Assembly (NCBI GenBank): GCA_963674745.2
Contig: CAXXDV010000001.1
Location: 1,248,001 to 1,312,000 of the forward strand
Source of the DNA: Desulfosudaceae bacterium
GTDB taxonomy: Bacteria > Desulfobacterota > Desulfobacteria > Desulfobacterales > Desulfosudaceae
DNA: 64,000 nt
Direction of reading: 5' to 3'
Shown here: piece by piece, positions 1 to 13,780 of the stretch
Layout of the letters: the number at the start of each line of letters is the position of its first letter
Numbering within the stretch: position 1 is the stretch's first letter
Notes under the pieces: model-generated
What the model saw: the letters and a program-made list of their open reading frames with translations, nothing else
Database searches by the model: none
Told to the model about the DNA's origin: nothing
Position numbers and translations under genes: made by a program

Positions 1-1719
1 CGTGCCTGGCGAGAACATCGCAGAAACAATGAGGACTCTCTTTATCAAGGCGCAGCAATCCGCCAAGAACAACTTCTTTCGGAAGACAGTGATTCCGTAA
101 TGAACAGATGTCGGGAACTTGCCAATGAGGGGGGGGAGATACCGGCGGCCATTGCATACCTGGCAGCCTGGTTAAATATTGATTCTCCCTTTTTGAAAGG
201 ATGTGACGTCGCCCTCGAGTCCGGGTTGCATCGAATCTGGGAGGCGGTAACGGAATACTGGGATGACTTGATGGGTTCCGGAAAAAAAAGGGCGGAGCTT
301 AAAAAAATCCGGCAGCAAATTGTAGACAAAACAAGCGTTTTTAAAAACCTTGAACAGGAGAGTGTAGCGCTCCAAAAAATTTTGGAAACAGAATCTTCTG
401 CCGACAGCGTGCAATCACAGGAAAACGCTGACGCCGGCCAGCCCTCCGCCCATAAACGTCAGTTTGAAAATGAAATAAAGGAGCTAAAAGTCCGCATTTC
501 AAAGAATCAAGCCGATATCGATTCGCTGATAGCCAGGGAAGGCGACCTTAATATCGAACTGCGTGCCATCGATCAGGGGCTGAATGATCCCGGGACCCGC
601 CGAGACCTGTTTAAGGAACATGTCGAGGGTAAAGCCCTTGATCGGTTCTCCAAGATTGTCCCGAAACTGGTGAAGTCTTCAGATGAATGCCAACGCACAG
701 ATAAGGAAGTAGTCCGTAAAGAAAGAGCCAAAACCGGTACCTTGAACTGGTGGCTTTTATCAAATGCCGTGATCTTCGTATGTTCGTTGGTTTTAACCTG
801 TTTTAACCTGAGTATGGAAATGGTGTTAACAACAATATTACCATGGACCGCAACGGCAATCGTAGTCACCCTGATCGTATTTACGTTTTATTATTACTTC
901 AAGATTAAGCCGGATTTACACAAAGCTTATAACGATCGACATCAGGCAAAATGGAGTCAACGGAATATTCAAAACGAAATGGTTGCCGTACTTACCCGGC
1001 TGGAAAAAACACGCCCCGACTTTGCGGCCTGTTTTTATGCCATTGAGTGGTTTCATTCTTTAAAGTCAAACATTGCCAATCGCCATAGCGAATTATCGGC
1101 TGCTGTTTCCGGGCTACAAGACCTGCGGAATAAGGCTGTTTCTGAGAGGAGCCTTGCCGAGGACACGGAAAACAGACGAATCGTTCCAAATAAGATCGAA
1201 TTTGAGGCGCTTTGGCCATTAGGCGAAAAATCTCTTCAAAACAGCCTGTTAACGCAACAACTGGTCAAGCTTTATTGTAGAGAAGTCTTTGAGTCCGGTG
1301 CTGCCCAGGCCTTGAGCAAGCTACAGGAAACACTTGAAGCGGTAACCAGGGAATCATTCGGCGAAATTCTGGGAATGGATATCGCAGAACTTTTTGAATT
1401 ACTTGATTCAACAATGCCCGTAGCCGACCTGGATCAAACTTTACGCACGGGGCTGGAAAACACTTCGCCTCTGATCAATATTCATGAGTTTTCCCGGCAC
1501 CAGGGTGCAGTTGAAGAGTTTTTTATATCACTTAAATGCCGGGATGGCGGTGAGACGGCGAGTCGTATTGAAAGACTGTCCCGGGATAAAAGTCTGCAAC
1601 TGATACCGGCGGAATCCCCGGACAATATCCGATTTGTGCGGCTTATTACAAAAATAACGCCATCTCATTGGATTTATTATGCTTATTTCAACAGCCACAT
1701 TAACCATGTGAATGAGTAA
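1..1719 (+). CDS. Large membrane-anchored coiled-coil protein, 5'-partial
   Basis: Frame is open from base 1 (RAWREHRRNNED...) into the 100..1719 ORF, so the gene starts outside the window. Long coiled-coil stretches and two adjacent hydrophobic helices (WWLLSNAVIFVCSLVLTCF; ILPWTATAIVVTLIVFTFYYYF). Confidence 0.75.
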   Translation, partial: RAWREHRRNNEDSLYQGAAIRQEQLLSEDSDSVMNRCRELANEGGEIPAAIAYLAAWLNIDSPFLKGCDVALESGLHRIWEAVTEYWDDLMGSGKKRAELKKIRQQIVDKTSVFKNLEQESVALQKILETESSADSVQSQENADAGQPSAHKRQFENEIKELKVRISKNQADIDSLIAREGDLNIELRAIDQGLNDPGTRRDLFKEHVEGKALDRFSKIVPKLVKSSDECQRTDKEVVRKERAKTGTLNWWLLSNAVIFVCSLVLTCFNLSMEMVLTTILPWTATAIVVTLIVFTFYYYFKIKPDLHKAYNDRHQAKWSQRNIQNEMVAVLTRLEKTRPDFAACFYAIEWFHSLKSNIANRHSELSAAVSGLQDLRNKAVSERSLAEDTENRRIVPNKIEFEALWPLGEKSLQNSLLTQQLVKLYCREVFESGAAQALSKLQETLEAVTRESFGEILGMDIAELFELLDSTMPVADLDQTLRTGLENTSPLINIHEFSRHQGAVEEFFISLKCRDGGETASRIERLSRDKSLQLIPAESPDNIRFVRLITKITPSHWIYYAYFNSHINHVNE

Positions 1720-1751
1720 CCGTTCATCACAAACCTGCAAAGGAGACTATC

Positions 1752-2480
1752 ATGAACCGAAATTCAATAATTATCGTTATCTCTGTCATCAGTGTTGCCG
1801 TTATTATCGGAGCGGCAGTCGGAGGATACTTGATCTGGTCTCAAGGGAGCAAGTTTACCGTTGTTTTCAGGGACTCCAAATACCTTCAGCCCGGGGCAAA
1901 CGTATACCTCTCCGGTGTTGTTATCGGAACCGTTAAAGCCGTCGATGTTAACAATAGTGGTGGAGTTAATGTTGTTGTCCGGCTTTCGGATAAAAACATT
2001 AGTCTTTCTCGGGCATCTCAGTTCTTTATCGATACCGGTTACGAACGGTGCCTTATGGTAAAGACGTCAAGCAAACCAGCCCTTCCCATTGCCAATGGTG
2101 ATGTTTTAGAAGGGACGGACAGCTTTCTGATGTGGCAACTGTTGGATGTTGTTGATCAAATCCAGGACGTAGTCGATTCTCCGCAAGCACGAAAGCTGAG
2201 GGCGCAATTCAAGCAATGCCTCACCAGTTTTAGTGAACGGCTGCGACAAATCGACTGGGATAAAATAGGAAATGACGTCAAAGTGCAGGTGGAGTCCTTG
2301 GTCGATGAAATTGACCGGGCTTTACAGTCTCAAGAATTTCAGCAAAGCCTGGAACAGATCAAGGAGAAAATCAAAAACACTCAAAACGCCCTCATAGAGT
2401 TGAAAAACAGCGAAGAAGCGACACGACTCTATAAGGATTTACAAGAGCTTTATAACAGAATCAATGAAAGGCACGATTAA
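1752..2480 (+). CDS. MlaD/MCE-domain protein with C-terminal helical region
   Basis: N-terminal TM helix then FTVVFRDSKYLQPGANVYLSGVVIGTVKAV, typical MCE start; SD AAGGAG upstream. Confidence 0.75.
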   Translation: MNRNSIIIVISVISVAVIIGAAVGGYLIWSQGSKFTVVFRDSKYLQPGANVYLSGVVIGTVKAVDVNNSGGVNVVVRLSDKNISLSRASQFFIDTGYERCLMVKTSSKPALPIANGDVLEGTDSFLMWQLLDVVDQIQDVVDSPQARKLRAQFKQCLTSFSERLRQIDWDKIGNDVKVQVESLVDEIDRALQSQEFQQSLEQIKEKIKNTQNALIELKNSEEATRLYKDLQELYNRINERHD

Positions 2481-2528
2481 GAGCCGGGCGTTTCAACAAG
2501 GCTATAAATCAAGATAGAGGGATATGAG

Positions 2529-3815
2529 ATGCCGGAGTTTAAAACACCAAGCATAACCGGTGTGTATTTTGAAGACACAACAGGGAAACTTCGTCTCTTT
2601 GAAAAGGATTCTATCCTTGTCATGACGGTTCAACCGTTACCGCGGGCATGGCAAAAAACAAGGCGGAAATCCTACTGGATAAATTGCCGGCCAGAGAGGT
2701 TTAAAATTCCAATGGGTAATATAGAGAAACGACTGGAGGGATTGAATTCTCATTTAGACGAAAACGGGAAGCTTTTACCTCAATTCTGTACGTCACCCAC
2801 GGATAAATTCTTGAATTTGGGAATACGTAGTCATCTGATGTTTTGCCTGACTATCTCTAAAAAAGACCGTTTGATTATTCGGCCTTTCCCAACAAGACAG
2901 TGGCATTTATTGTCTCTCTTGGCCGGTTGTGGTGATGCGGCGGTGGAACTGGTTGAGTCAAATCCAACGTTAGGCTTTATGGTGTCGTCCAGTTGGGTCT
3001 TCAAGAAAAAGCCCGTTCAAAAGCCTCTCCGTGCGGCCCGCTCGATAGTTAATAAGAAACAACGGGATATTTTGAGATGGCTCGATTGGCCCAATAATTC
3101 TGAAAGCACAAGGAAAATACTGGCGAAGATAGCTCATCCAGCAATCAATATTTCAAATTTGTTGTATCTGCGGCAGGCGATTTGCGACAAAAAAATAGCC
3201 AAGACCTTGTGTCACCTTCCACGCATCAACACAGGGGTGCTGAGAATTGTCACAGATCCAGGCCTGTCTTCCTTAACAACGCCATCATTATTATTTGAAA
3301 TTGCTCATTGTCGGAAGCATGAAGACAAATATCCCACGGCTGCATATTTACTTCGCGACAGTATCCATATTCAACTCCAGCTGTACGCGAACAGGCGATT
3401 TCCAGGGCCGATTCGCCATTTAAAACAATTGTCGGAGGTTCATGATTCGCTGGTGGAGGATCTCAATTGTGCCAAAAGCCTTAATGAAAACATTCCATTT
3501 CCCGCGCCACCTATTGATGGCACAGAGTTTATCCGCCCAATAACTCAAACCGCTGATTTAGTTCGTGAAGGAATTTTCATGAAAAATTGCGTGGCAGCAG
3601 ACTTATATATAACGAAAATACTACAGCGCGAAATATATATTTACCAGGTATTCAAGCCAGAGCGTTGTACCTTGGCCCTAAAAAGAAAAAACGGGGCCTG
3701 GACAGTATCAGAATTAAAAAGGGCTCGGAACGAGGACCCAGCTTCAATAACGAGATCAGCAGTTGAGATTTGGCTGGCACAAAAGCCAACAAATAATGGC
3801 CGTGGTCAAATGTAA
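2529..3815 (+). CDS. PcfJ-like domain protein
   Basis: C-terminal IRPITQTADLVREGIFMKNCVA...IYIYQV...RCTLAL...ELKRARNEDP resembles PcfJ-like domains of mobile elements. Confidence 0.65.
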   Translation: MPEFKTPSITGVYFEDTTGKLRLFEKDSILVMTVQPLPRAWQKTRRKSYWINCRPERFKIPMGNIEKRLEGLNSHLDENGKLLPQFCTSPTDKFLNLGIRSHLMFCLTISKKDRLIIRPFPTRQWHLLSLLAGCGDAAVELVESNPTLGFMVSSSWVFKKKPVQKPLRAARSIVNKKQRDILRWLDWPNNSESTRKILAKIAHPAINISNLLYLRQAICDKKIAKTLCHLPRINTGVLRIVTDPGLSSLTTPSLLFEIAHCRKHEDKYPTAAYLLRDSIHIQLQLYANRRFPGPIRHLKQLSEVHDSLVEDLNCAKSLNENIPFPAPPIDGTEFIRPITQTADLVREGIFMKNCVAADLYITKILQREIYIYQVFKPERCTLALKRKNGAWTVSELKRARNEDPASITRSAVEIWLAQKPTNNGRGQM

Positions 3816-3873
3816 ATACATTAAATTTTGGCAGTCATGGCCGAAAACAATTTCATTCAAGGAGGAACAGACA

Positions 3874-4293
3874 ATGTCAGAATGTATTTTTTGTAAAATT
3901 TTTAATGGTCAGGCTGACGCGAGCATTGTCTATAGAGATGATATCGCCTCTGCCTTTCTCGATATAAGTCCCGTGAATCCGGGTCATGTCCTGGTTGTTC
4001 CCAATGAACATTTTGCAGGTTTAGCAGATCTTCCGGAGAAAACAGCCAAGCATCTGATTTGTGTTGCACAGCGCTTGGCTTCTGCCATCAGGTTTTCGAA
4101 CGATATTAAATGTGAAGGCATCAATCTGTTTCTGGCAGATGGAAAAGCTGCCGGCCAAGAAGTTTTTCATGTCCATCTGCATATTATTCCTCGATTCAAA
4201 AACGATGGATTTCGGTTGGTTTTTTCCGACCATAAGCCAACTCGTTCAGAACTGGAAGAGTTGGCGGTTGGTATTCGAAAGCAATTGGGATAG
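3874..4293 (+). CDS. HIT family nucleotide hydrolase
   Basis: MSECIFCKI start after AGGAGG (3860-3865); PGHVLVVP and HVHLHII histidine triad. Confidence 0.9.
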   Translation: MSECIFCKIFNGQADASIVYRDDIASAFLDISPVNPGHVLVVPNEHFAGLADLPEKTAKHLICVAQRLASAIRFSNDIKCEGINLFLADGKAAGQEVFHVHLHIIPRFKNDGFRLVFSDHKPTRSELEELAVGIRKQLG

Positions 4294-4335
4294 GGGCTAA
4301 CTAATTCTTTATTTTAATCTGGAAGGTTAACGGAT

Positions 4336-4836
4336 ATGAATTATGAAAAAATCTTTTCGGGTTTATTGGAAACAATGGGTTTGACGATAAAAAATTTCGA
4401 AAAGACCTGTAATTTAGAGCTCACGGAGGATCATTACCGGGTTTTGGTCAGTTGGGCTTGTTTTTCTGCAAAACGGGATATGAAATCAGTGTTGCTGAAA
4501 CGTTATTCAGAAAAAATTCCCACTCCATTTTTGCAATTTGACATCTTTCTCCGAGGAGATCCTTCCAACAATTTTGAACCAGATGGGAAAGGAATTGCAT
4601 TTACAGCTACCAGAACTTGGGAATTGATGGAATGTGCTTTGAATGAAATCAGGCTGTTAATTAGCGCGGACGTATCCAAGGCTGATGTTGAAAGAGGGTT
4701 AGCGCTTTTGTTAATCAGCATAATGGATGATGAGCATGAAGGATTTCAAGAACTGTTAAGTCACAATACAGAGGAGGAGGCTACTTTAGCTTATTTTGCC
4801 AAAAGGAATAAACCAGATAACCGGGTAAAAGGATAG
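4336..4836 (+). CDS. Hypothetical protein
   Basis: 166-aa ORF with upstream GGAAGG, 4 nt from the next gene. Confidence 0.6.
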   Translation: MNYEKIFSGLLETMGLTIKNFEKTCNLELTEDHYRVLVSWACFSAKRDMKSVLLKRYSEKIPTPFLQFDIFLRGDPSNNFEPDGKGIAFTATRTWELMECALNEIRLLISADVSKADVERGLALLLISIMDDEHEGFQELLSHNTEEEATLAYFAKRNKPDNRVKG

Positions 4837-4840
4837 ACAA

Positions 4841-5647
4841 ATGAAAAAAACTATTTGGGCGAGCGATTTACACTTGGAATTTTTAAAAAAAGAAAAGCGC
4901 AATGACTTTCTAAATCAACTTGCAGCAATGGAGCCCGAAAATATAATTCTCGGTGGCGATACTGGTGAGGCCCCTAATGTCGGATCATATTTAAAACTTA
5001 TCGCGCAACATATGCCTTCCGCTACAAAGATTTACATCATTTGTGGAAATCACGAAGGATATAGGAGCAGCATCGCTGCTGCTAGAGGGGAGATTATAAA
5101 AATCTGTGATGAATCAGATCAACTATACTATCTTCCGAATGAAGGTGTTGTCGAACTATCCGAAAACGTTGGTCTAATTGGTGCTGACTGCCTTTTAGGT
5201 GATGCGAGAATAGGTAACTATAATAATCGTATTCGGCTGGGTGATTTTACCTGGACCGCTGATTTTCAGTGCTTAAATCATAAAGAAAGAATTACTATTC
5301 TGCGAAAGTTAGGAGATCAAGCCCGAGATTATTTTGAAAGTGTTCTTCCTTTAGCGCTGCAAAAATATAATCACGTGGTGATTATAACCCATGCGCCATT
5401 ATTCAGTGAATTCTGCTTGCACGGTGGGAAGCCATCGAGCCCGGATTATCTTCCATACTTCGTCTGCCAGGCTCCTGGCGAAATAGTTTTTAAGTACGCA
5501 AAAGAATTTCCAGATAATTTTATTTACTGCCTGTCGGGACATTCCCACTGTCATGCTGAAGGGAATCTCTTAAAAAATTTGTATGTTTGTGTTTCTGGCT
5601 CCGACTATGGGGCACCGCGTATTGAAACACTTATCATTGAAGAATAA
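4841..5647 (+). CDS. Calcineurin-like metallophosphoesterase
   Basis: Motifs SDLH, GGD, GNHE, ITH, GHSH. Confidence 0.88.
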   Translation: MKKTIWASDLHLEFLKKEKRNDFLNQLAAMEPENIILGGDTGEAPNVGSYLKLIAQHMPSATKIYIICGNHEGYRSSIAAARGEIIKICDESDQLYYLPNEGVVELSENVGLIGADCLLGDARIGNYNNRIRLGDFTWTADFQCLNHKERITILRKLGDQARDYFESVLPLALQKYNHVVIITHAPLFSEFCLHGGKPSSPDYLPYFVCQAPGEIVFKYAKEFPDNFIYCLSGHSHCHAEGNLLKNLYVCVSGSDYGAPRIETLIIEE

Positions 5648-5660
5648 ATATAGAGGCAAC

Positions 5661-7376
5661 ATGAAAAACTTTGTTCATCTTCACGTACATACAGAATACA
5701 GCCTTTTGGATGGAATTATCCGTCTGAAGTCCCTTGCCCAACGCGCTGTTGAATATGGCATGCATTCTGTGGCCATCACAGATCATGGTACCATGTTCGG
5801 AGTTGTACCTTTTTACCAAGCAATGGTTGAAGCCGGAGTAAAACCCATTATCGGGTGTGAATTTTACCTGGCGCCAAGAACGATAGCCGATAAAACCCCG
5901 CAGGATCACGAAGGCCTTTCTCATCTGGTCCTGCTGGCGGAAAATATGAAGGGGTATCATAATCTCTGTCGTCTGGCGACGATTGCTGCGACAAAGGGGT
6001 TTTATCGCAAACCCCGAATTGACAGAGAACTGCTGCGTCAACACAGCTCTGGCCTCATCGCTTTGTCCGCCTGCATGAAAGGAGCGGTGCCTCAGTTGCT
6101 GATGCAGGGAAGAACCAATGAAGCAAATGCCGCGGCCCAGACTTTCTCAAACATCTTTGGAGAAGATCATTTTTTTCTGGAGGTGCAGAACAACGGCATC
6201 CCGGAGCAAAAGGAGTTAAACCGAGCCCTCTTGGAAATGAGCCAACGGCTTTTTATTCCCCTGGTTGGGACCAATGACTGTCATTATCTTGATGCCGACG
6301 ACTGGCGCGTACACGAAATTTTTCTTTGTATTCAAGCAGGTATAACCAGCTATTACACGGACAGACTGAATTTTGATATTAATCAACTCAACTTCAAGCC
6401 CGTACAGGAGATGCTTGATTTTTGTAAGAATTTTCCTGGTGCTTCTGAAAATACTATTGATATCGCCCGGCGATGCAATGTCGAACTTGAGCATAAATCT
6501 CTTCACTTTCCACAATTTGACCCCCCTGCAGGAAAAACGGCGGATTCTTTTTTTGAAGAAAAAGTATCGGCCGGTTTTGAACAACGAATGGAGGCGATCT
6601 GGAAAAACAATTCGCAAGCTACTGACGGCCGGAAAAAATTAATTCGATATCTGGTTGGAAAAGATGGCAAAAAGACCGATGGTGAAGTTTATTTTGTCCA
6701 TGTTGCTACATTAGGCTCTATGAAAAAGGAAACCGTTATCCAGAAGGTTGGTCGTCTTATGGGCATATCTCAGGACAAAATTGACGAAATGATTAGTCTG
6801 ATATCAGACGCTGGGAAACTGGAGGGCAGGTATCAAAACGAGTCAACTCTGAAAGAAATGATCGAATCAAGCCCGGAGCTTTATCAGCTATTCGCTTTCA
6901 GTAGAAGACTTGTAGGCATTCCATGTCATGTCGCAAAAAGCGATGCCTATGTTGTCATATCATCTAATCCTCTGAATCAAGCCATTCCGCTATGCCGGTT
7001 AAATAATAACATTATTATTACTCAGTATAACAAGTGGTCTATCGAGACTTTTTTGAAGGGGTCAACAATACCTGATATTTCCAACATCCGTCTTCTTTCA
7101 TTTCAATATATTAATAAAAAAATAGTCATTGACGGAATTATTACAAAAATTTATCGAAAAAAAACTAAAAAGAACAAAACCATGGCCATTCTTGAGCTCG
7201 ATGTTTCGTGGGGCAATATAAAGGTTCTCATTTTCCCAAAAGTTTACGAATCGTCAAAAACACTCTTAAACGAAGAAGGAGAAGCGATTCTTGTGGAGGG
7301 CCGAGTAGAAACCGACGAAACACCTGCATTAATCGCGGAAAGGCTAACGCGAGTAAATGCCTTAGACCCTACTTAA
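5661..7376 (+). CDS. DnaE-derived protein: intact PHP domain, degenerate thumb and OB fold, polymerase active site absent
   Basis: MKNFVHLHVHTEYSLLDG, TDHG, GCE, SAC, NDCH are DnaE PHP motifs. No GRGS, PDIDIDF or KFDFLGL. C-terminal OB fold (IVIDGIITKI...MAILELD...IKVLIFPKVY). 571 aa versus ~1150 for DnaE. Confidence 0.85.
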   Translation: MKNFVHLHVHTEYSLLDGIIRLKSLAQRAVEYGMHSVAITDHGTMFGVVPFYQAMVEAGVKPIIGCEFYLAPRTIADKTPQDHEGLSHLVLLAENMKGYHNLCRLATIAATKGFYRKPRIDRELLRQHSSGLIALSACMKGAVPQLLMQGRTNEANAAAQTFSNIFGEDHFFLEVQNNGIPEQKELNRALLEMSQRLFIPLVGTNDCHYLDADDWRVHEIFLCIQAGITSYYTDRLNFDINQLNFKPVQEMLDFCKNFPGASENTIDIARRCNVELEHKSLHFPQFDPPAGKTADSFFEEKVSAGFEQRMEAIWKNNSQATDGRKKLIRYLVGKDGKKTDGEVYFVHVATLGSMKKETVIQKVGRLMGISQDKIDEMISLISDAGKLEGRYQNESTLKEMIESSPELYQLFAFSRRLVGIPCHVAKSDAYVVISSNPLNQAIPLCRLNNNIIITQYNKWSIETFLKGSTIPDISNIRLLSFQYINKKIVIDGIITKIYRKKTKKNKTMAILELDVSWGNIKVLIFPKVYESSKTLLNEEGEAILVEGRVETDETPALIAERLTRVNALDPT

Positions 7377-7394
7377 AATTGATATCCAGCCCTC

Positions 7395-7856
7395 TCATTC
7401 ATAATAGTTGTATTTTGCGATTTTCATGGCTGTTTCAGTAAATAAATATTTCGGATCCGGTATAATGCCGAGCCTGTCAAGATCAAGCCTGTCAGAATCC
7501 CAGCATGCCTTGATTGTCAGGTCATTGGTTTCACAATCATAGGTGTGATGCCGGCAGGCAAAGATAAGCCGTTCCACATCAGACTCGTCAAGGCCCAACG
7601 CCTTCTTTGAAAACGTCTTTATGTATTTTGCCGCTCTTGGGCCATGTTCCGGATCTGACCCGTCAGAAAGCCTCTGACAATCATGAAAATATGCAAAAAG
7701 AGTGATTATTTTCTCATTAACGTCTTCATGTTTTGCAATGGAATGCCCATAATCAGCAACTCGTTCCCAATGCCTATACCCGTGGACAGAGTGTGCGGGA
7801 ACTGGCGTTTCAGCCTTTATACGATAAATTATCTTCTTCATACTCATTATTAACAC
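7395..7856 (-). CDS. HD-domain phosphohydrolase (start may be a few codons later)
   Basis: HGYRHWERV...FAYFHD...HG...HH...CWDSDRLD. Confidence 0.8.
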   Translation of the reverse strand: MLIMSMKKIIYRIKAETPVPAHSVHGYRHWERVADYGHSIAKHEDVNEKIITLFAYFHDCQRLSDGSDPEHGPRAAKYIKTFSKKALGLDESDVERLIFACRHHTYDCETNDLTIKACWDSDRLDLDRLGIIPDPKYLFTETAMKIAKYNYYE

Positions 7857-8032
7857 ACGGTTAGGGGAAATCTACCTAAACAGCAGGCTTAGTCTCTTGA
7901 TATGTATAACATATACTTTTCAATGCTAGAATCAATAGGTGAACAATCTAACAAAAATATAAAATCTGAGTTCAATTAGAATTGAAGTCTTGATCAAGCA
8001 GCGCATGATAATTTATATAATTTCTTATAATT

Positions 8033-8608
8033 ATGAACCAGATACCTACCATAAAAACACATCGCCTGACCCTCCGGCCGTTTACACTTGAAGACGCACC
8101 TGAACTTCAGCGTCTGGCCGGAGACCGGGCCATTGCCGATACCACCCAAAGCATACCGCACCCATACGAAGACGGCATGGCCGAAAAGTGGATTTCCAGT
8201 CATTTTGAAACATTTAATCAGGGGAAAGGTGTGGATTTTGCTATAACCAGAAATTCAGACAAAGCACTTGTTGGAGCAATCAGCCTCATGCACATAATAA
8301 AAGGTCATCAGGCAACTTTGGGTTATTGGATCGGCAAACCATACTGGAGCAAGGGCTTTTGCACTGAAGCGGCCCATGCTGTTTTAAATTTTGCGTTTAC
8401 AAAGTTTAGGATGATTCGTGTTCATGCCAGTCACATTACCCGGAACCCGGCTTCAGGCAGGGTAATGCAGAAACTGGGCTTGCGCCATGAAGGCTGTCAG
8501 CGTCAGCAGATCCGGAAGTGGGGTAAATTTGAGGATCTGGAATTGTACGGCATTTTGGAAGAGGAGTGGCGGAAAGGGCCTAGTGAACCGTTTAGCGGGT
8601 CCTCTTAA
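8033..8608 (+). CDS. GNAT N-acetyltransferase, RimJ/RimL family
   Basis: IKTHRLTLRPF, LGYWIGKPYWSKG, NPASGRVMQKLG. Confidence 0.92.
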   Translation: MNQIPTIKTHRLTLRPFTLEDAPELQRLAGDRAIADTTQSIPHPYEDGMAEKWISSHFETFNQGKGVDFAITRNSDKALVGAISLMHIIKGHQATLGYWIGKPYWSKGFCTEAAHAVLNFAFTKFRMIRVHASHITRNPASGRVMQKLGLRHEGCQRQQIRKWGKFEDLELYGILEEEWRKGPSEPFSGSS

Positions 8609-8747
8609 AAACAGGAGGCCAAAACGCCGAAATAAGCCGATAGAAAGTCGAAAAAACACGAAAAACTTAGCATATTATAAAAGCGTATGTTGAAGCTGAT
8701 AAAGAATAGTCGGAAAAAATCGGGAGCCCTTATTCTGGCAATCGAAT

Positions 8748-8779
8748 AAAAAAGGGGGGTTTTACCCCCCCCCTTTTTT
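8748..8779. terminator. Bidirectional intrinsic terminator between convergent genes
   Basis: A6-G6 / C-run-T6 hairpin. Confidence 0.7.
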
Positions 8780-8790
8780 GTAAAACGATT

Positions 8791-9273
8791 TTACAGAAAG
8801 CAAAGTTGCGCTAGCTCGAAATAATTCATGATGAATTGGTAATCACTGATAAGATCTTGATAGGTTATTGAATTCGGACATATCAATGACAAAAACGCAA
8901 CTCCCGAATTATCCTCTTGATAATGCATGTAAAGGGTCGTTACCTCTGAGGAAGGCAGCTCATCTTCCCCGGAAATCATTATGTCGCCCCACATATCGGC
9001 CAGGACATCTACTTTGTCAATTTCTTGCATGTAGACTAAAAAATCTATCACATGGCCACCAATGTCAGTGCTACAGAGCGTAAAAAGGGCCCTACGAATA
9101 CCATCCTCATCAATAAAGATGTCCACACAGGGGGCATTTCGGTCTTTCGATTCTGTCAGAAAAAAACGATAACCCCATTCCTTGTCAAAAATTACCTGTT
9201 GGTCAAAAGATTCAATAGATATTCTTCCACAAATAAACTCATCTTCATCCAGTAGGTACAAATTTTTTTTCAT
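8791..9273 (-). CDS. Acidic hypothetical protein
   Basis: ATG at 9273 preceded by AAGGAG; 160 aa. Confidence 0.6.
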   Translation of the reverse strand: MKKNLYLLDEDEFICGRISIESFDQQVIFDKEWGYRFFLTESKDRNAPCVDIFIDEDGIRRALFTLCSTDIGGHVIDFLVYMQEIDKVDVLADMWGDIMISGEDELPSSEVTTLYMHYQEDNSGVAFLSLICPNSITYQDLISDYQFIMNYFELAQLCFL

Positions 9274-9830
9274 AAACCGTCTCCTTGAATTAAAATACAT
9301 TTTAATTTTAATTGGTTATTAAAAACTTTAGGCCTTATAACAGAAACCACCCCCTTTCCTAGAGGAGAGGTGCGTGAAGATCCCCAGCCGTCTTTGGAGA
9401 ACACCGCGACCGAAGCAGGTGAGACTATATCTGGTTGCTGTAGTCGGGTGGAGTTCAGGGTGGGTATAATGGTGCGATGCGTTTTGTTTTGCCTGAAAAC
9501 TAAACAAGAAAAACGGTAACATGCTGATACAAAACAAAAAAATCGTCTCACACTCCATGAGCGCACCACTCCTTTCAGTAGTGCCTCAAGAACGAGTAGT
9601 AAGGCGATTTTTTATCGTCTGACAAGCAGTTCTCGTAGCTAAATTAAAAATAATTACGGTCGGAAATTATGCAAGACCAAAAGGCATTTTTTTCGTTACG
9701 TGCCGTTACGTACGAAATTACAATAATATTATCGTAGCACCCTGTTCGAGAAACCCGCGTTCATTCAGAAATCTGCAAAATCGCCCCTATAAGGATCGAC
9801 TTTTTAGCCGGATCTGGGTGCCAGGTGTCG

Positions 9831-10018
9831 GGTTTCTGTGTGTGAATTGTGTGTGAAAGTTTTTCCAAAATAAGCAAAAACGTGGAAAATTGACAAAAAC
9901 ATAGAATTTAAAAACCCAATATTTTCAGCTTCCTAATAAAAAATGAGGAGGTTAGGAAACCCGGGGGTCTTGACTGGCAGTCATGAGGTCAGGGGTTCGA
10001 TCCCCCTCAGCTCCACCA
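9831..10018 (+). repeat. att-like direct repeat copy 1 (188 bp)
   Basis: Gap-free 160/188 match to 12889-13076; tandem TGTGTGTGAA at 9837-9846 and 9848-9857. Confidence 0.92.
9974..10018 (+). pseudogene. 3' half of tRNA-Ala(GGC) (att core)
   Basis: Anticodon loop CTGGCAG, T-arm AGGGG-TTCGATC-CCCCT, ...CTCCACCA end; no 5' acceptor strand or D-arm. Confidence 0.88.
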
Positions 10019-10037
10019 AAATTCTACAATGATGAGG

Positions 10038-10076
10038 AAGGGTTAACCGAAACGGCGGTTAGCCCTTTTTCTTTTT
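10038..10076 (+). terminator. Intrinsic terminator after tRNA fragment 1
   Basis: AAGGGTTAACCG/CGGTTAGCCCTT stem plus T tract. Confidence 0.8.
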
Positions 10077-10220
10077 GTTCACTGGCTGTGTGTGAAAAAC
10101 AATTCGGTTCATGTTACGAAGTAAGAATCCGGATTTTACTTGTTTGTCTGAAGTTGATCATTTATAAATTAAAAAATTATATCCAGATGTTTCTCCTTCA
10201 AGCTCTTGGATTGGTGCACT

Positions 10221-10601
10221 GTGAAACGACGACTACAGGCCATTGGGGGATTGCTTCTATTTGTGGCGGGAACGTTGCTTATCCCTGCCATGCACAAATG
10301 GGAGCTGTCCTGTAGCCACGCCGGAACGACGGGAGGCGCCTTTCATGCGTGCTGCTCCCACGCGCATTCGTCTGATCGCAGAACGCACGGCCATTCGCGA
10401 GATTCCCATCCGGCTAAGAAACACCACGATCCGTCCACCTGCCCGATCTGTCAGATTGCGAAGATGCCGGCCAATATGCCGGCGGTTGGGGTTCCCGTGC
10501 CGCGGTTCGAGCCCGTCAAGATCGTTTTTCCGGTTGCGCCACGGCAACCGGCGTTTAAAACACCACGCCTGCTGCCCTTCTTCCGCGGGCCTCCTGCCTG
10601 A
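10221..10601 (+). CDS. DUF2946-like upstream ORF (signal peptide, His-rich, CxxC, C-terminal RGPP)
   Basis: GTG start giving MKRRLQAIGGLLLFVAGTLLIPA; 10 His; CPIC; Pro-rich tail ending FRGPPA*; directly upstream of a TonB receptor. Confidence 0.82.
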   Translation: MKRRLQAIGGLLLFVAGTLLIPAMHKWELSCSHAGTTGGAFHACCSHAHSSDRRTHGHSRDSHPAKKHHDPSTCPICQIAKMPANMPAVGVPVPRFEPVKIVFPVAPRQPAFKTPRLLPFFRGPPA

Positions 10602-10699
10602 TTCTGCACCACACATAATTACATTCATGCGCCCTACACACGTTGTGCCTTGTTGAGGTATGTGCATGGGTTGTTCCCCAACAGAATCACTTACAGGAG
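10591..10699 (+). promoter_or_regulatory. mRNA hairpin sequestering the TonB receptor Shine-Dalgarno
   Basis: CTCCTG (10591-96) pairs with CAGGAG (10694-99), and TGATTCTG (10599-606) with CAGAATCA (10682-89); inner stem 10624-32/10662-70. Confidence 0.75.
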
Positions 10700-10708
10700 T
10701 TCGTTCCG

Positions 10709-12733
10709 ATGAAGATAATATTCGTGTTTATTGCAGCTACACTATGCTGCGCATCGTTTGTTTTTGCCGAAGAACCCATCTCGCTTACGGAAATCGTGGT
10801 GACGCCGACCGGGAGCGAAAAAGAAAAATTCGATACGTCGCTGCCCGTGAACCTGTTGGAAATCAGCGACCTGGAAGATATGATCGCCATCTCAATGGGC
10901 GAAATCTTTCAGAACGAGCCCGGCGTAGATGCTGTCACCACCGGTCCGGGAAGCGTTCATCCCATGATCCGGGGGCTCTATGGAGAGCAGGTGCTGGTGC
11001 TCGTCAATGGCGTGCGCCTGTCTGAACAGCGCCCCGGAGGCAATCATGTGTTTTCTATCGACCCCGCCCAGGTTGAACGCGTCGAAGTGGTCCGTGGCCC
11101 GGCGTCGGTGCTCTACGGCTCCGATGCCATCGCCGGCGTGATCAACTATATCACGAAGCAGGCCGACGAGGAGACCACACCTGAAGCCCGTTTCGGGGGC
11201 GAAGCCGATGTGCAGTATGAGGGCGCGACGGACGGGTGGAAGGAGTCGGCGCACCTGCGTTTTGGCCAGGGCCGGTTCAACGGTTATGTCGGCGGGACCT
11301 ACAAGGACACGGGCGACATCGAGACCCCGGAAGGTGAACTTGCGAATAGCTTCTACGACGGCTATACGGTCTGGGGCGGCGGCAATTACATTGCTGACGG
11401 ATGGAAAACGTATGCCGATTATTCGTTCATGGAAGCGGACATCGCCATACCCGGCCCCGCTGCTTTTGCCGAAGACTATTTCAAAGGAGAAAAGCATCAG
11501 CGGCTGGCGCTCGGCTTTGAAAACAACGCGTTCGGCAGTGCCCCCGAGCGATATAGCATCGATTTCGGCTGGCAGCGGCATAACCGGCATCGCTACCGCC
11601 GCAAGACCGATGCGATTCCCCCTGTCGTGCAGGGCGACCTGGAAGTCAATATCTGGCTCGACATCGACACCTACACGTTAAAGCCGCAGATGGTTCTGGT
11701 TCCCGACGACACGCACTGGATAACGTTCGGGCTGGATCTGTTTTATGAAGACGCTTCATCAGACCGCACGATAAGGGACAGCGCTTCTTCGTGGGTTAAT
11801 CCGGGGTTCGACGACGTTCCTGTCATCCCCGACTCGACCCGCATGAGGATGGGTGCGTTTGTTCAGGACGAAATCGTGATAAGCGACCGCTGGGTCCTCT
11901 CGCCCGGGATCCGTGTTGACCGGATTGAGGCCAAGACGGACGGGCATCCGCGTCACCAGTTGACCGGAAAGGAGGACTCCGGGAGCAGTGCCGTGAGCGG
12001 AAATCTCGGCCTGCTTTACAAGGTAAGTAACGAGATCAACCTTTACGGCAATGTGGGTCGGGCCTTCCGTGCGCCGACCCTGTTGGAGCTGTACTTCTAC
12101 GGGCCCCATGATGTGGGCAACGACATCGGCGACCCGGACCTCGATCCCGAAACGAGCTGGAACTTCGATGTCGGCCTGAAAACCCGGACCGAACGGCTGC
12201 AAACAATGGTCAGCGTTTTCTTCAACATGGTCGACGACTATATCGTCAAAGAGAACCAGGGCGATGGAAACTACCGCTACATGAACTACGCCGAGGTCTC
12301 ACTTTACGGTGCGGAAGCAGGCCTGGAATACGAGCTGGGCGGCGGCTTCTCGACATTTGCCTCTGTTTCGTACGTGCGCGGAGAGAATGACGATACGAAA
12401 GAGGATCTTCCCGGCATTCCGCCGTTGAAAGGCCGTTACGGTGTGCGATACGATGTTGCGTTTGGCGCACAGAACGGCCTCTGGGTTGAGTTGGCCGGAC
12501 TGACCGCATCGGACCAGGACAAGACCGGCCCGAACGAACGCGAGACCGACGGCTACACACGCGGCGACCTGCGCATGGGGGTCGATCTTGGCGAGACATG
12601 GCGTTTTGTTGCAGCCGTCGAGAACTTCACCGACAGACTGTACGAGAATCACCTTTCTTCGTCCTGGCAGGAATTCGGGTTGAACGATCAGCCGGGCAGG
12701 AACATAAAGGTGATGGCCAAAGCGCGATTTTGA
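10709..12733 (+). CDS. TonB-dependent outer-membrane receptor (probable metal uptake)
   Basis: SD AGGAG, signal peptide, TonB box-like EIVVT, plug IRGL and VERVEVVRGPASVLYGS, FRAPTLLELY, LDPETS, C-terminal PGRN...ARF. Confidence 0.95.
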   Translation: MKIIFVFIAATLCCASFVFAEEPISLTEIVVTPTGSEKEKFDTSLPVNLLEISDLEDMIAISMGEIFQNEPGVDAVTTGPGSVHPMIRGLYGEQVLVLVNGVRLSEQRPGGNHVFSIDPAQVERVEVVRGPASVLYGSDAIAGVINYITKQADEETTPEARFGGEADVQYEGATDGWKESAHLRFGQGRFNGYVGGTYKDTGDIETPEGELANSFYDGYTVWGGGNYIADGWKTYADYSFMEADIAIPGPAAFAEDYFKGEKHQRLALGFENNAFGSAPERYSIDFGWQRHNRHRYRRKTDAIPPVVQGDLEVNIWLDIDTYTLKPQMVLVPDDTHWITFGLDLFYEDASSDRTIRDSASSWVNPGFDDVPVIPDSTRMRMGAFVQDEIVISDRWVLSPGIRVDRIEAKTDGHPRHQLTGKEDSGSSAVSGNLGLLYKVSNEINLYGNVGRAFRAPTLLELYFYGPHDVGNDIGDPDLDPETSWNFDVGLKTRTERLQTMVSVFFNMVDDYIVKENQGDGNYRYMNYAEVSLYGAEAGLEYELGGGFSTFASVSYVRGENDDTKEDLPGIPPLKGRYGVRYDVAFGAQNGLWVELAGLTASDQDKTGPNERETDGYTRGDLRMGVDLGETWRFVAAVENFTDRLYENHLSSSWQEFGLNDQPGRNIKVMAKARF

Positions 12734-12888
12734 AGTCGAGAAGGATGGGGGGGCGGACAACACCTGAACCGTACACGTGGAGGCCTGCGGACATGGCCTC
12801 CACCGTCCGGTCCGGGTGAACGTATTAAATTTTAAGGTCCTGAATAGAGATCAAAACAAGAACAAGGATCTGAAGGCTTCAGAAGTCA

Positions 12889-13076
12889 GGTTTCTGTGTG
12901 TGAATCATGTGTGAAAATTTTTCCAAAATAAGCTAAAACGTGGAAAATCGACCAAAATGTGAGATTTAAAAATCTTATAAATTCCGTTTCCTACAAACAA
13001 TTGAGGGGGTCAGGAAACCCGGGGGTCCAGCCTGGCAGCCATGAGGTCAGGGGTTCGATCCCCCTCAGCTCCACCA
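12889..13076 (+). repeat. att-like direct repeat copy 2 (188 bp)
   Basis: Matches 9831-10018; TGTGTGTGAA 12895-12904 plus a degenerate copy at 12906-12915. Confidence 0.92.
13032..13076 (+). pseudogene. 3' half of tRNA-Ala(GGC) (att core, probably the displaced host tRNA end)
   Basis: CTGGCAGCCATGAGGTCAGGGGTTCGATCCCCCTCAGCTCCACCA followed by a terminator and core genes. Confidence 0.88.
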
Positions 13077-13087
13077 GAAGTAAATTC

Positions 13088-13116
13088 GCCCGCCTGTCTT
13101 TCAGGCGGGCTTTTTT
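13088..13116 (+). terminator. Intrinsic terminator
   Basis: GCCCGCCTG/CAGGCGGGC stem plus T6. Confidence 0.88.
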
Positions 13117-13154: not shown

Positions 13155-13577
13155 ATGAAACGAATCTGTGTCATTGACGGACAGGGCGGCGGCATCGGGG
13201 CCGCCATTATCAAGCGGTTAAAATCCGCCTTTGGCGAACGTGTGGAAATCATCGCCCTGGGCACCAATGCCATTGCCACGGCACAGATGCTCAAAGCCAA
13301 GGCCAACCGCGGGGCGTCCGGCGAAAACGCCATTACCAGAACCATAGCCGATGCAGACATTATCGTCGGCCCGAGCGGCATTGTCATGGCCCATGCCCTG
13401 ATGGGCGAAGTCACGCCGGCCATTGCCGAAGCCATATCCGGATGCCGGGCAAAAAAACTGCTGATACCCCTGTCCCAGGAAAACATGGAAATCGTCGGCA
13501 TGACCCAGGATCCCCTGCCCCATCTGCTGGACGCCATGGTGGAAATACATTTAAAAGATATTGATCGCAAGGAGTAG
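13155..13577 (+). CDS. DUF3842 family protein
   Basis: VIDGQGGGIG...ALGTNAIAT...GASGENAI...GEVTP. Confidence 0.85.
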   Translation: MKRICVIDGQGGGIGAAIIKRLKSAFGERVEIIALGTNAIATAQMLKAKANRGASGENAITRTIADADIIVGPSGIVMAHALMGEVTPAIAEAISGCRAKKLLIPLSQENMEIVGMTQDPLPHLLDAMVEIHLKDIDRKE

Positions 13578-13582
13578 TTATC

Positions 13583-13780
13583 ATGTGTGAAGCAAACGCC
13601 TATTTAAAAAAAGAGGCCGGTGACGAACTGGTGATGGAATCGGTTGATCTGGTAGAACCGGATGAAGACGGTGACGGCATTAAGCTGATCAGCATTTTTG
13701 GTGAGCAAAAATTCTTAAAAGCCCACATTCATGCCCTTTCACTGGTCGACCACAAGGTGTATTTAAAAGAAAACGTTTAA
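13583..13780 (+). CDS. cooT: CooT family nickel-binding protein
   Basis: MCEANAYL...IFGEQK...LVDHKV; SD AAGGAG. Confidence 0.8.
   Translation: MCEANAYLKKEAGDELVMESVDLVEPDEDGDGIKLISIFGEQKFLKAHIHALSLVDHKVYLKENV

Follow-up and report, generated by a model that had tools for sequence, protein, structure and literature searches.

To our knowledge, leader peptides that sense metals on the ribosome have been recognised only recently, and only two of them, CruR and CutF, have been studied, which are reported to work differently. Here, we describe a leader open reading frame (ORF) of the same family, DUF2946, that precedes a TonB-dependent receptor gene in a 64,000-nucleotide (nt) stretch of a Desulfosudaceae genome (assembly GCA_963674745.2, contig CAXXDV010000001.1, positions 1,248,001 to 1,312,000 of the forward strand), referred to below as the window. 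The codons of its putative arrest motif, together with the stop codon, are predicted to pair with the Shine-Dalgarno (SD) region of the receptor gene. All coordinates are positions within the window, and the leader and receptor parts lie on the + strand.

CruR (Bp2923) is located ahead of bfrG in Bordetella pertussis. It is a DUF2946 leader in which a CxxC motif and an RAPP motif are 45 residues apart, with a TonB transporter encoded downstream, and the CxxC-RxPP spacing in the family is 45 +/- 1-2 residues (PMC9426467). Expression requires RAPP, repression by copper requires CxxC, and the authors proposed that copper relieves the arrest, after which Rho terminates transcription. The export signal is dispensable, and sensing is proposed to be cytoplasmic, through CxxC (PMC9426467). 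CruR arrests in vitro with the first proline (Pro1) in the P site and the second (Pro2) in the A site, as stated in a 2025 survey (PMC12992588). In the same survey, RGPP is the strongest arrest core in four peptide contexts, resists elongation factor P (EF-P) and is avoided by proteomes, while the Arg is irreplaceable for RAPP-type arrest in ApcA, ApdA, ApdP and SecM. How RAPP or RGPP arrest would regulate downstream genes is left open there, and the terms Shine-Dalgarno, stem-loop and secondary structure do not occur in that paper (PMC12992588).

CutF provides a different solution. In the CutF-cutO system of Rhodobacter capsulatus, a ribosome stalled on the leader unmasks the SD of the next gene, and export is required (PMC9973294; bioRxiv 10.1101/2025.02.05.636593).

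The leader in the window is separated by 107 nt from the receptor gene. The parts of this unit are as follows:

10221-10601, + strand: leader ORF (upstream ORF, uORF) of 126 amino acids (aa), with a GTG start at 10221, a TGA stop at 10599-10601 and an alternative TTG at 10206
10233-10289, + strand: codons of the N-terminal hydrophobic segment, residues 5-23, which follow KRR and form the 19-mer of highest hydrophobicity (mean Kyte-Doolittle value 1.96)
10311-10427, + strand: codons of the variable His/Cys-rich tract, residues 31-69, with 9 His, C31, C44 and C45; poorly conserved
10440-10451, + strand: codons of CPIC (C74, C77), the CxxC metal-sensing motif of the family, invariant in 23/23 aligned sequences
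10584-10595, + strand: codons of the RGPP arrest motif, CGC GGG CCT CCT; the stall is predicted with the P site on Pro1 (10590-10592) and the A site on Pro2 (10593-10595)
10585-10606, + strand: anti-SD strand, comprising the Arg-Gly-Pro-Pro-Ala codons, the TGA stop and the next 5 nt; 10599-10606 is invariant in 4/4 loci
10607-10681, + strand: spacer, with an inner stem (10623-10632/10662-10671), an apical hairpin (10645-10661) and a C-rich, G-poor 5' part
10682-10704, + strand: SD strand, consisting of CAGAATCA, a 4-nt internal loop, CAGGAG (SD AGGAG at 10695-10699) and TTCGT; 10680-10689 is invariant in 4/4 loci
10709-12733, + strand: TonB-dependent receptor gene, 674 aa from ATG 10709, with Plug and beta-barrel domains

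The leader matches Pfam PF11162 (DUF2946) with 33.0 bits against a cut-off of 23.7 (E = 1.2e-7, profile positions 13-117 of 117) and is the sole above-cut-off match to this family in the whole 5.5-Mb genome. Its GTG start corresponds to the start of its homologues at an equivalent M-K/R-R-R position, and residues 5-23 are a probable export signal or membrane anchor. Ten His (residues 25, 33, 42, 47, 49, 56, 58, 63, 68 and 69) and five Cys (31, 44, 45, 74 and 77) are present, the latter including a CC pair (44-45) and CPIC (74-77). The C-terminus reads FFRGPPA-stop, in which RGPP occupies residues 122-125, and 44 residues intervene between CxxC and RGPP. The Pfam match, the CxxC, the RxPP near the C-terminus, the spacing and the operon position are all as described for DUF2946/CruR leaders at the sequence level, and by these signs the leader is a member of the CruR/CutF (DUF2946) class.

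An earlier sequence-only reading of this stretch had singled out the 126-aa ORF with its 10 His, CC, CPIC and RGPPA-stop, all of which are where it placed them, and its suggestion of a kinship with DUF2946 is borne out by the profile score (33 against 23.7 bits) and the motif spacing (44 against 45 +/- 1-2 in the family). It had also taken RGPP for a stalling motif, in line with the rank of RGPP as the strongest published arrest core (PMC12992588). By analogy, RGPP would be a ribosome stall site with Pro1 in the P site, an assignment of P and A sites carried over from the CruR toeprint and from ApdA/ApdP (PMC12992588). Both Pro codons of the motif are CCT, though CCT accounts for 55/479 (11%) of the Pro codons in the long frames of the window.

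On the receptor side, AGGAG lies 9 nt ahead of ATG 10709. An in-frame TTG at 10643, inside the stem-loop, was considered as the receptor start and rejected; both an SD-based rule and the N-termini of homologues choose ATG 10709.

The two regions match exactly. CTCCTG at 10591-10596 is complementary to CAGGAG at 10694-10699, and TGATTCTG at 10599-10606 is complementary to CAGAATCA at 10682-10689. The minimum-energy fold of 10560-10730 contains an 8-bp helix (10599-10606/10682-10689) whose 5' strand opens with the UGA stop, a 5-bp helix (10592-10596/10694-10698), a 6-bp helix that includes three G-U pairs (10585-10590/10699-10704) and the 10-bp inner stem (10623-10632/10662-10671). The sequence-only reading had claimed 6 + 8 bp of pairing between the Pro-Pro-Ala-stop codons and the receptor SD; this pairing is exact, and in the ensemble 13 of its 14 pairs have probabilities of 0.94-1.0 and the remaining one 0.62. 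The inner stem that it had also drawn is found in the same fold. Extending the fold to 578 nt, so that it takes in the complete leader, the spacer and 60 nt of receptor sequence, leaves the pairing between the SD and the Pro-Pro-Ala codons at >=0.97. A search of the window at Rfam gathering thresholds found no known RNA families.

A ribosome with Pro1 in its P site would cover 10578-10605, that is, nearly the whole anti-SD strand, which agrees with the earlier proposal that a stalled ribosome covers the anti-SD. When 10578-10605 is blocked in the model, the cost of opening 10692-10714 drops from 10.8 to 6.8 kcal/mol. A modelled ribosome at the stop codon gives a cost of 6.9 kcal/mol, and one placed 5 or 10 codons upstream gives no lowering at all (11.7 or 12.3 kcal/mol). 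Since only the end positions lower the cost of opening the SD, the switch would depend on the time that the ribosome dwells on the last four codons.

Much of the evidence comes from relatives of the leader. A word-indexed protein search for leader homologues found none, and an exhaustive phmmer search found 32 at E <= 0.001. An alignment of 23 sequences defines a subfamily ending in ...PRLLPF-[SA]-[CR]-GPP-A-stop, in which H25, H69, C74, C77, P124 and P125 are the only residues invariant in 23/23, with G123 nearly so; H69 alone is invariant within the His/Cys-rich tract. Scans of species genomes and of metagenomes yielded 13 and 28 loci, respectively, and further loci came from genome searches; the close-locus scans used seven closer sequences as the alignment. 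The closest genome loci are in metagenome-assembled genomes (MAGs) from Desulfobacterales, Verrucomicrobiota, Victivallales and Kiritimatiellia.

The spacers of the close loci are of two types. Type 1 spacers, 102-107 nt long, are found at this locus (WIN), L005, L007 and L069. The two strands of the 8-bp helix (10599-10606 and 10680-10689) do not vary among these loci (4/4), while the interior is only 31-73% identical. RNAalifold applied to WIN, L005 and L007 keeps the outer helices and detects compensatory changes at three pairs of the inner stem. Given the small number of sequences and the invariance of the outer helices, the type 1 signal is one of conservation, not of covariation. The covariation that the sequence-only reading had named as a check is confined to these three pairs among three sequences and is absent from the outer helices, where conservation of the 8-bp helix in 4/4 loci stands instead.

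In type 2 (L006, L018, L055 and, on a partial contig, L019), the spacer is swapped for 216-260 nt of CCAATGAC-type repeat hairpins. The spacers of L006, L018, L019 and L055 consist of short GC hairpins interleaved with CCAATGAC/GTCATTGG repeats, which looks like an expansion of REP (repetitive extragenic palindrome)-like repeats inside the loop of the regulatory helix. Despite the replaced spacer, the Cys-Gly-Pro-Pro codons of L018 are the partner of its SD and the following 6 nt, with probabilities of >=0.95. The SD of L006 has its partner slightly further upstream, in the Phe-Ser-Cys codons, at ~0.5. When the five close receptor loci are folded whole, the main partner of the SD core lies within the last 24 nt of the leader in 5/5, with strengths of >=0.95 in WIN, L007 and L018, ~0.7 in L005 and ~0.5 in L006, the spacers of L018 and L006 being 216-221 nt long.

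Whether each leader end suits its own SD was assessed across 23 loci: WIN, L005-L008, L018 and 17 from the genome searches. L061 (where the contig ends), L065 (where the start is unclear) and the remaining scanned loci, which lack curated downstream starts, were left out. The footprint was taken as the 30 nt that start 12 nt upstream of the first base of Pro1 and extend 17 nt past it, and the SD segment as the 26 nt before the downstream start. The downstream starts were picked by eye and not blind to pairing, and an objective SD-scoring rule agreed with them in 23/23 loci. The mean duplex energy is -15.66 kcal/mol for cognate pairs against -11.74 kcal/mol for non-cognate pairs. When each group of related spacers is reduced to a single representative (17 loci), cognate pairs average -15.44 kcal/mol, compared with -12.05 +/- 0.59 kcal/mol for permuted pairs, and 0/20,000 permutations reach the cognate value. 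The result is again 0/20,000 when the three receptor-type representatives are removed (14 loci). The signal is lost when the footprint is displaced 45-135 nt upstream (18424, 561, 6004 and 13427 of 20,000 permutations) and when the SD segment is swapped for coding segments of the downstream gene (18567, 5772, 8028 and 12610 of 20,000).

Codon choice points the same way. When the native footprint is ranked against 1,500 random synonymous recodings at each locus, it falls in the top 5.1% here and in the top 10.5% in 11/17 loci, with a Fisher's combined p = 7e-7. As judged from these alignments and energies, the pairing of stall codons with the SD is a design that recurs in the relatives and is co-adapted across the subfamily.

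A number of observations weigh against this interpretation. At the locus itself, the 171-nt fold has a z of only -1.52, with 20/200 shuffles folding equally well, and against a 22-nt SD segment lacking CAGAA, 63/377 other 30-nt windows of the uORF and spacer pair equally well; the short-segment control is also uninformative for L005 (90/377) and L006 (64/503). The evidence from the single locus is weak, and the case rests on the relatives, with their conservation, cognate-specific complementarity and codon bias. Among these, too, the two outer helices are invariant and show no covariation, the compensatory changes amounting to just three inner-stem pairs in three sequences, and 6/17 loci (L057, L066, L048, L049, L050 and L068) have no codon bias toward pairing. 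Local structure worth 6.8 kcal/mol persists over the start site in the model even when a ribosome occupies the arrest position. Cys takes the place of the motif Arg (CGPP) in 14/23 aligned homologues, although this leader itself has RGPP; as the Arg is irreplaceable in published arrests, the clade may rely on a weaker Gly-Pro-Pro pause. The published mechanism of CruR, finally, is Rho-dependent termination and not SD masking. The Arg codon CGC and the Cys codon UGC differ by one base, which is situated inside the anti-SD strand.

All things considered, the leader probably acts in cis, as a DUF2946 (CruR/CutF) leader that controls initiation of receptor translation through the anti-SD in its stall codons and in response to a metal. 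In the off state, the last five sense codons (CGC GGG CCU CCU GCC), the UGA and the next 5 nt of the free mRNA would pair with the receptor SD region, and this long-range helix would keep 30S subunits from landing at the SD. In the on state, a ribosome translating the leader would arrest at R-G-P-P, its P site occupied by Pro1 and its A site by Pro2. Its footprint would cover the anti-SD strand, the helix could not form and the SD, 90 nt downstream, would be freed. When the cognate metal is plentiful, the invariant H-D-x3-C-x2-C segment of the nascent chain, located 44 residues before the point of arrest, would bind it. The metal-bound chain would relieve the arrest, the ribosome would terminate two codons later and leave, and the helix would re-form. 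The C-rich spacer could additionally let Rho terminate transcription.

For the arrest, the direction of the metal effect and the identity of the metal, this scheme leans on the published relatives. The downstream gene encodes an importer, and the CruR logic, in which metal relieves the arrest and expression falls, would therefore be a sensible one. Sensing may take place in the cytoplasm via CxxC, as in CruR, or depend on export, as in CutF. Taken as a whole, the interpretation offered by the sequence-only reading holds for the family, the arrest core, the footprint over the anti-SD and the conservation, and finds no backing in its hint of nickel or cobalt, discussed below.

The most serious competitor to stall-codon SD masking is attenuation of the CruR type, in which the stalled ribosome would shield a Rho-utilisation (rut) site, release by metal would let Rho terminate before the receptor gene and the SD helix would be incidental or of secondary importance. 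Such attenuation has been published for the most similar architecture characterised so far, in which a DUF2946 leader precedes a TonB receptor gene (PMC9426467), and the first 50 nt past the stop are rich in C and poor in G at the three loci that share most of the spacer (C to G ratios of 17:6 at this locus, 17:5 and 20:9). At L069, however, which keeps only the outer helix, the ratio is 14:12, and the repeat-type spacers have no excess of C over G (15:15, 16:17 and 15:16) yet keep the SD pairing. The C-rich tract is also partly paired in the predicted fold, and a rut site does not explain the cognate-specific complementarity or the codon bias. As the main mechanism, Rho attenuation seems unlikely, but it can coexist with SD masking.

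Two further explanations dispense with a regulated arrest as the switch. Plain translational coupling would have any ribosome that reaches the end of the leader open the helix briefly, with metal control residing elsewhere, for example in a Fur/Zur-type repressor. The modelled ribosome at the stop codon does open the SD equally well (6.9 against 6.8 kcal/mol), the CGPP members lack the Arg needed for RAPP-type arrest, and a leaderless orthologous receptor in a genome of the same family adjoins a Fur-family gene and a palindrome. Coupling nevertheless leaves unexplained the invariant CxxC and GPP with their fixed spacing of 44-45 residues, as well as the presence here of RGPP, the strongest arrest core and one avoided by proteomes; we consider it very doubtful. 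Alternatively, the DUF2946 protein might work in trans, binding metal in the periplasm or membrane as a partner of the receptor, in which case the mRNA helix would have no regulatory role. The probable export signal, the Cys/His-rich sequence and the conserved residues beyond the arrest motif (H25, PRLLPF) would suit such a protein, and CutF was initially regarded as a copper chaperone. Yet CruR and CutF act in cis and are undetectable as proteins, cutF shows no trans complementation, and signals at the level of RNA (cognate pairing, codon bias and helix conservation) would not be expected of a protein partner. A role in trans is the most improbable of the explanations considered here.

A different arrangement is seen at some RAPP-type DUF2946 leaders. 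In L024, L044 and L045, the first start of the downstream frame is 1-25 nt past the leader stop, and in L026 and L027 it is ~25 nt away; in L024 and L026, this close-start frame is a ZnuA gene. A downstream start 1-25 nt from the leader stop means that a stalled ribosome would cover the start region of the next gene. These loci (L024, L044, L045, L026 and L027) may therefore imply a different logic, possibly inverted or based on reinitiation.

Which metal is sensed is less clear. The receptor itself cannot settle the question, as it is below every NCBIfam cut-off (the best match, TonB-hemin, reaches 266.7 against 316.85). Among solved structures, those closest to it are a haem receptor and OprC. 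An OprC-type copper receptor (NCBIfam TIGR01778) was considered and rejected at 137.5 bits against a cut-off of 472.45. The copper site of OprC, CxxxM-HxM, consists of C143, M147, H323 and M325 (PMC8610252); the receptor has R, N, H and R at these positions, a match of 1/4 in which the essential Cys is absent. The His-rich tract of the leader is not conserved and is therefore a poor guide to the metal.

The genes that follow sibling leaders are more informative. ZnuA-family binding proteins are encoded after the leaders of L024, L026 and L041, and of L058, where the protein has a His/acidic loop. Other sibling leaders are followed by a gene for a His-rich protein of ~420 aa that ends in ...GAHGAHKF. 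Proteins of this kind, ~420-450 aa long with a signal peptide and His-rich loops, are encoded in L056, L057, L059, L060, L062, L063, L066 and L067. The motif FNP-x-(V/I)S-x-(I/V)-(V/I/L)-D is common to them. Seven of the eight inspected copies have the C-terminus GAH(G/D)AH(K/S)F, and the copy in L066 carries a further His/Cys tail. No Pfam or NCBIfam family matched these proteins, which may represent an uncharacterised outer-membrane protein for metal uptake.

The leaderless receptor mentioned above is found at L071 (G003:C13), in a genome of the same family; it is orthologous, with 78% nt identity, and has no DUF2946 leader. There, a divergent Fur-family gene (823-1269, - strand) adjoins the receptor, and the promoter region (1270-1340) contains a 9-nt inverted repeat with a 6-nt spacer. 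The best solved relatives of this Fur-family protein are a "putative metal uptake regulation protein" (3mwm and 7vo0, which we take to be Streptomyces Zur) and the zinc uptake regulator FurB (2o03). It appears that the same receptor has two alternative control systems, a leader here and a Fur-family regulator in L071.

On balance, the sensed metal is probably zinc or copper, and the context in relatives makes us lean towards zinc. Nothing in the receptor, the leader or the context of the relatives favours nickel or cobalt. The sequence-only reading had taken the His-rich tract as a hint of nickel, cobalt or zinc rather than copper. The tract is not conserved and the nickel/cobalt part finds no support; its preference for zinc over copper receives indirect backing from the relatives and from the absence of the OprC copper site.

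The design may extend to the whole branch, a proposal that we put forward tentatively and at slightly less than even confidence. Stall codons and stop would then be the anti-SD of the regulated gene, co-adapted locus by locus, which would answer how RxPP leaders control TonB receptors, ZnuA-type proteins and His-rich outer-membrane proteins; the metal would be zinc and not copper, and CGPP would cause an arrest or a pause despite its lack of Arg.

The leader-receptor unit is part of a cassette that is flanked by the following features:

9822-10021, + strand: direct repeat copy A, the left flank, ending in the 3' half of a tRNA-Ala(GGC)
10034-10071, + strand: intrinsic terminator of 16 pairs and a T run, which ends the upstream tRNA-Ala-fragment repeat and forms the 5' limit of the leader-receptor unit
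12880-13079, + strand: direct repeat copy B, the right flank, 84% identical to copy A and also ending in a tRNA-Ala 3' half, followed by a terminator at 13088-13110

Since the terminator at 10034-10071 lies upstream, the leader is the first gene of its operon. This terminator is nearly identical to the one that follows the intact tRNA-Ala of the genome, which is located ~70 kb upstream (G000:C1:1188342-1188473, L077). Over 104 nt, copy A shares 99% identity with the 3' part of this intact tRNA and its terminator. Neither a tRNA nor a tmRNA (transfer-messenger RNA) was detected in the window by ARAGORN. Weak tmRNA-like Rfam matches in the window were dismissed, being in fact the 3' halves of tRNA-Ala; the real tmRNA is elsewhere in the genome. 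Parts of the direct repeat recur elsewhere in this genome and in relatives.

A search of the genomes of 60 relatives gave no credible match to the leader (0/60). The family is found in 5/401 genomes of its own phylum, this one included, and in 16/401 genomes of the phylum of L007. The arrangement of repeats and tRNA, the absence from the 60 relatives and the occurrence of the closest homologues in other phyla suggest that the leader-receptor cassette was acquired horizontally at a tRNA integration site. The repeats look like the product of tandem integration at that site, and positions 1-9970 of the window may therefore be the end of a ~70-kb island. Just 3' of the right-hand repeat, 13155-13780 encodes a DUF3842 protein and CooT, the nickel-binding accessory protein of carbon monoxide dehydrogenase. 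These are followed by an IspH-like ORF of 575 aa, whose long C-terminal part consists largely of hydrophobic stretches.

If the proposed mechanism is true, the identity of arrest site and anti-SD gives the answer of one branch to the question of how RAPP/RGPP arrest regulates downstream genes. The locus extends the class to an apparently horizontally acquired cassette, in a lineage with few members of the family, and ties the branch to probable zinc-uptake genes. The CGPP variants, in turn, conflict with the published rule of an irreplaceable Arg.

The system has most in common with CruR. Both have the Pfam DUF2946 domain, the invariant CxxC and RxPP near the C-terminus, with a spacing of 44 residues here and 45 in CruR, and the hydrophobic N-terminus here may correspond to the export signal of CruR. 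In both, the leader is the first gene of an operon and is followed by a long spacer and a TonB-dependent transporter, an uptake gene that would be expected to be repressed by metal. However, the motif here is RGPP, one residue before the stop, whereas CruR has RAPP, three residues before the stop. The receptor lacks the copper site of OprC, no PepSY gene follows it, and the host belongs to a lineage in which DUF2946 is rare (5/401 genomes of the phylum). Most importantly, the arrest codons and stop are here the predicted anti-SD of the receptor gene, while the CruR paper proposes Rho termination and describes no SD masking (PMC9426467).

With CutF, the leader shares a DUF2946-like, here probably exported product, a C-terminal proline motif, action in cis and an mRNA structure, here predicted, over the SD of the next gene. 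CutF, however, has CxxxC and PPP and depends on EF-P, in contrast to CxxC and RGPP-A here, and its anti-SD (CTTC) is in the cutF-cutO stem-loop and not in the arrest codons. Copper induces the CutF stall and thereby turns on a detoxifying oxidase, whereas the gene downstream of the present leader encodes an importer, so that the logic should be inverted.

SecM-secA, MifM-yidC2, VemP-secDF2 and ApdA/ApdP likewise use a C-terminal arrest to expose the SD of the next gene, and RxPP is a common arrest core. Unlike the present leader, they monitor protein export or insertion, precede sec or yidC genes and have no CxxC metal motif. The leader also resembles the class of RAPP/RGPP small ORFs in PMC12992588, as a small, probably secreted protein with a C-terminal RGPP and a TonB-related gene downstream. 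An anti-SD inside RxPP codons was not found in the literature on DUF2946, CruR/RAPP arrest peptides and TonB, a coverage that does not extend to the CruR and CutF supplements (mRNA structures and intergenic motifs). Relative to that literature, what appears to be new is that the arrest and stop codons themselves would serve as the anti-SD, co-adapted with the SD of the regulated gene across the subfamily.

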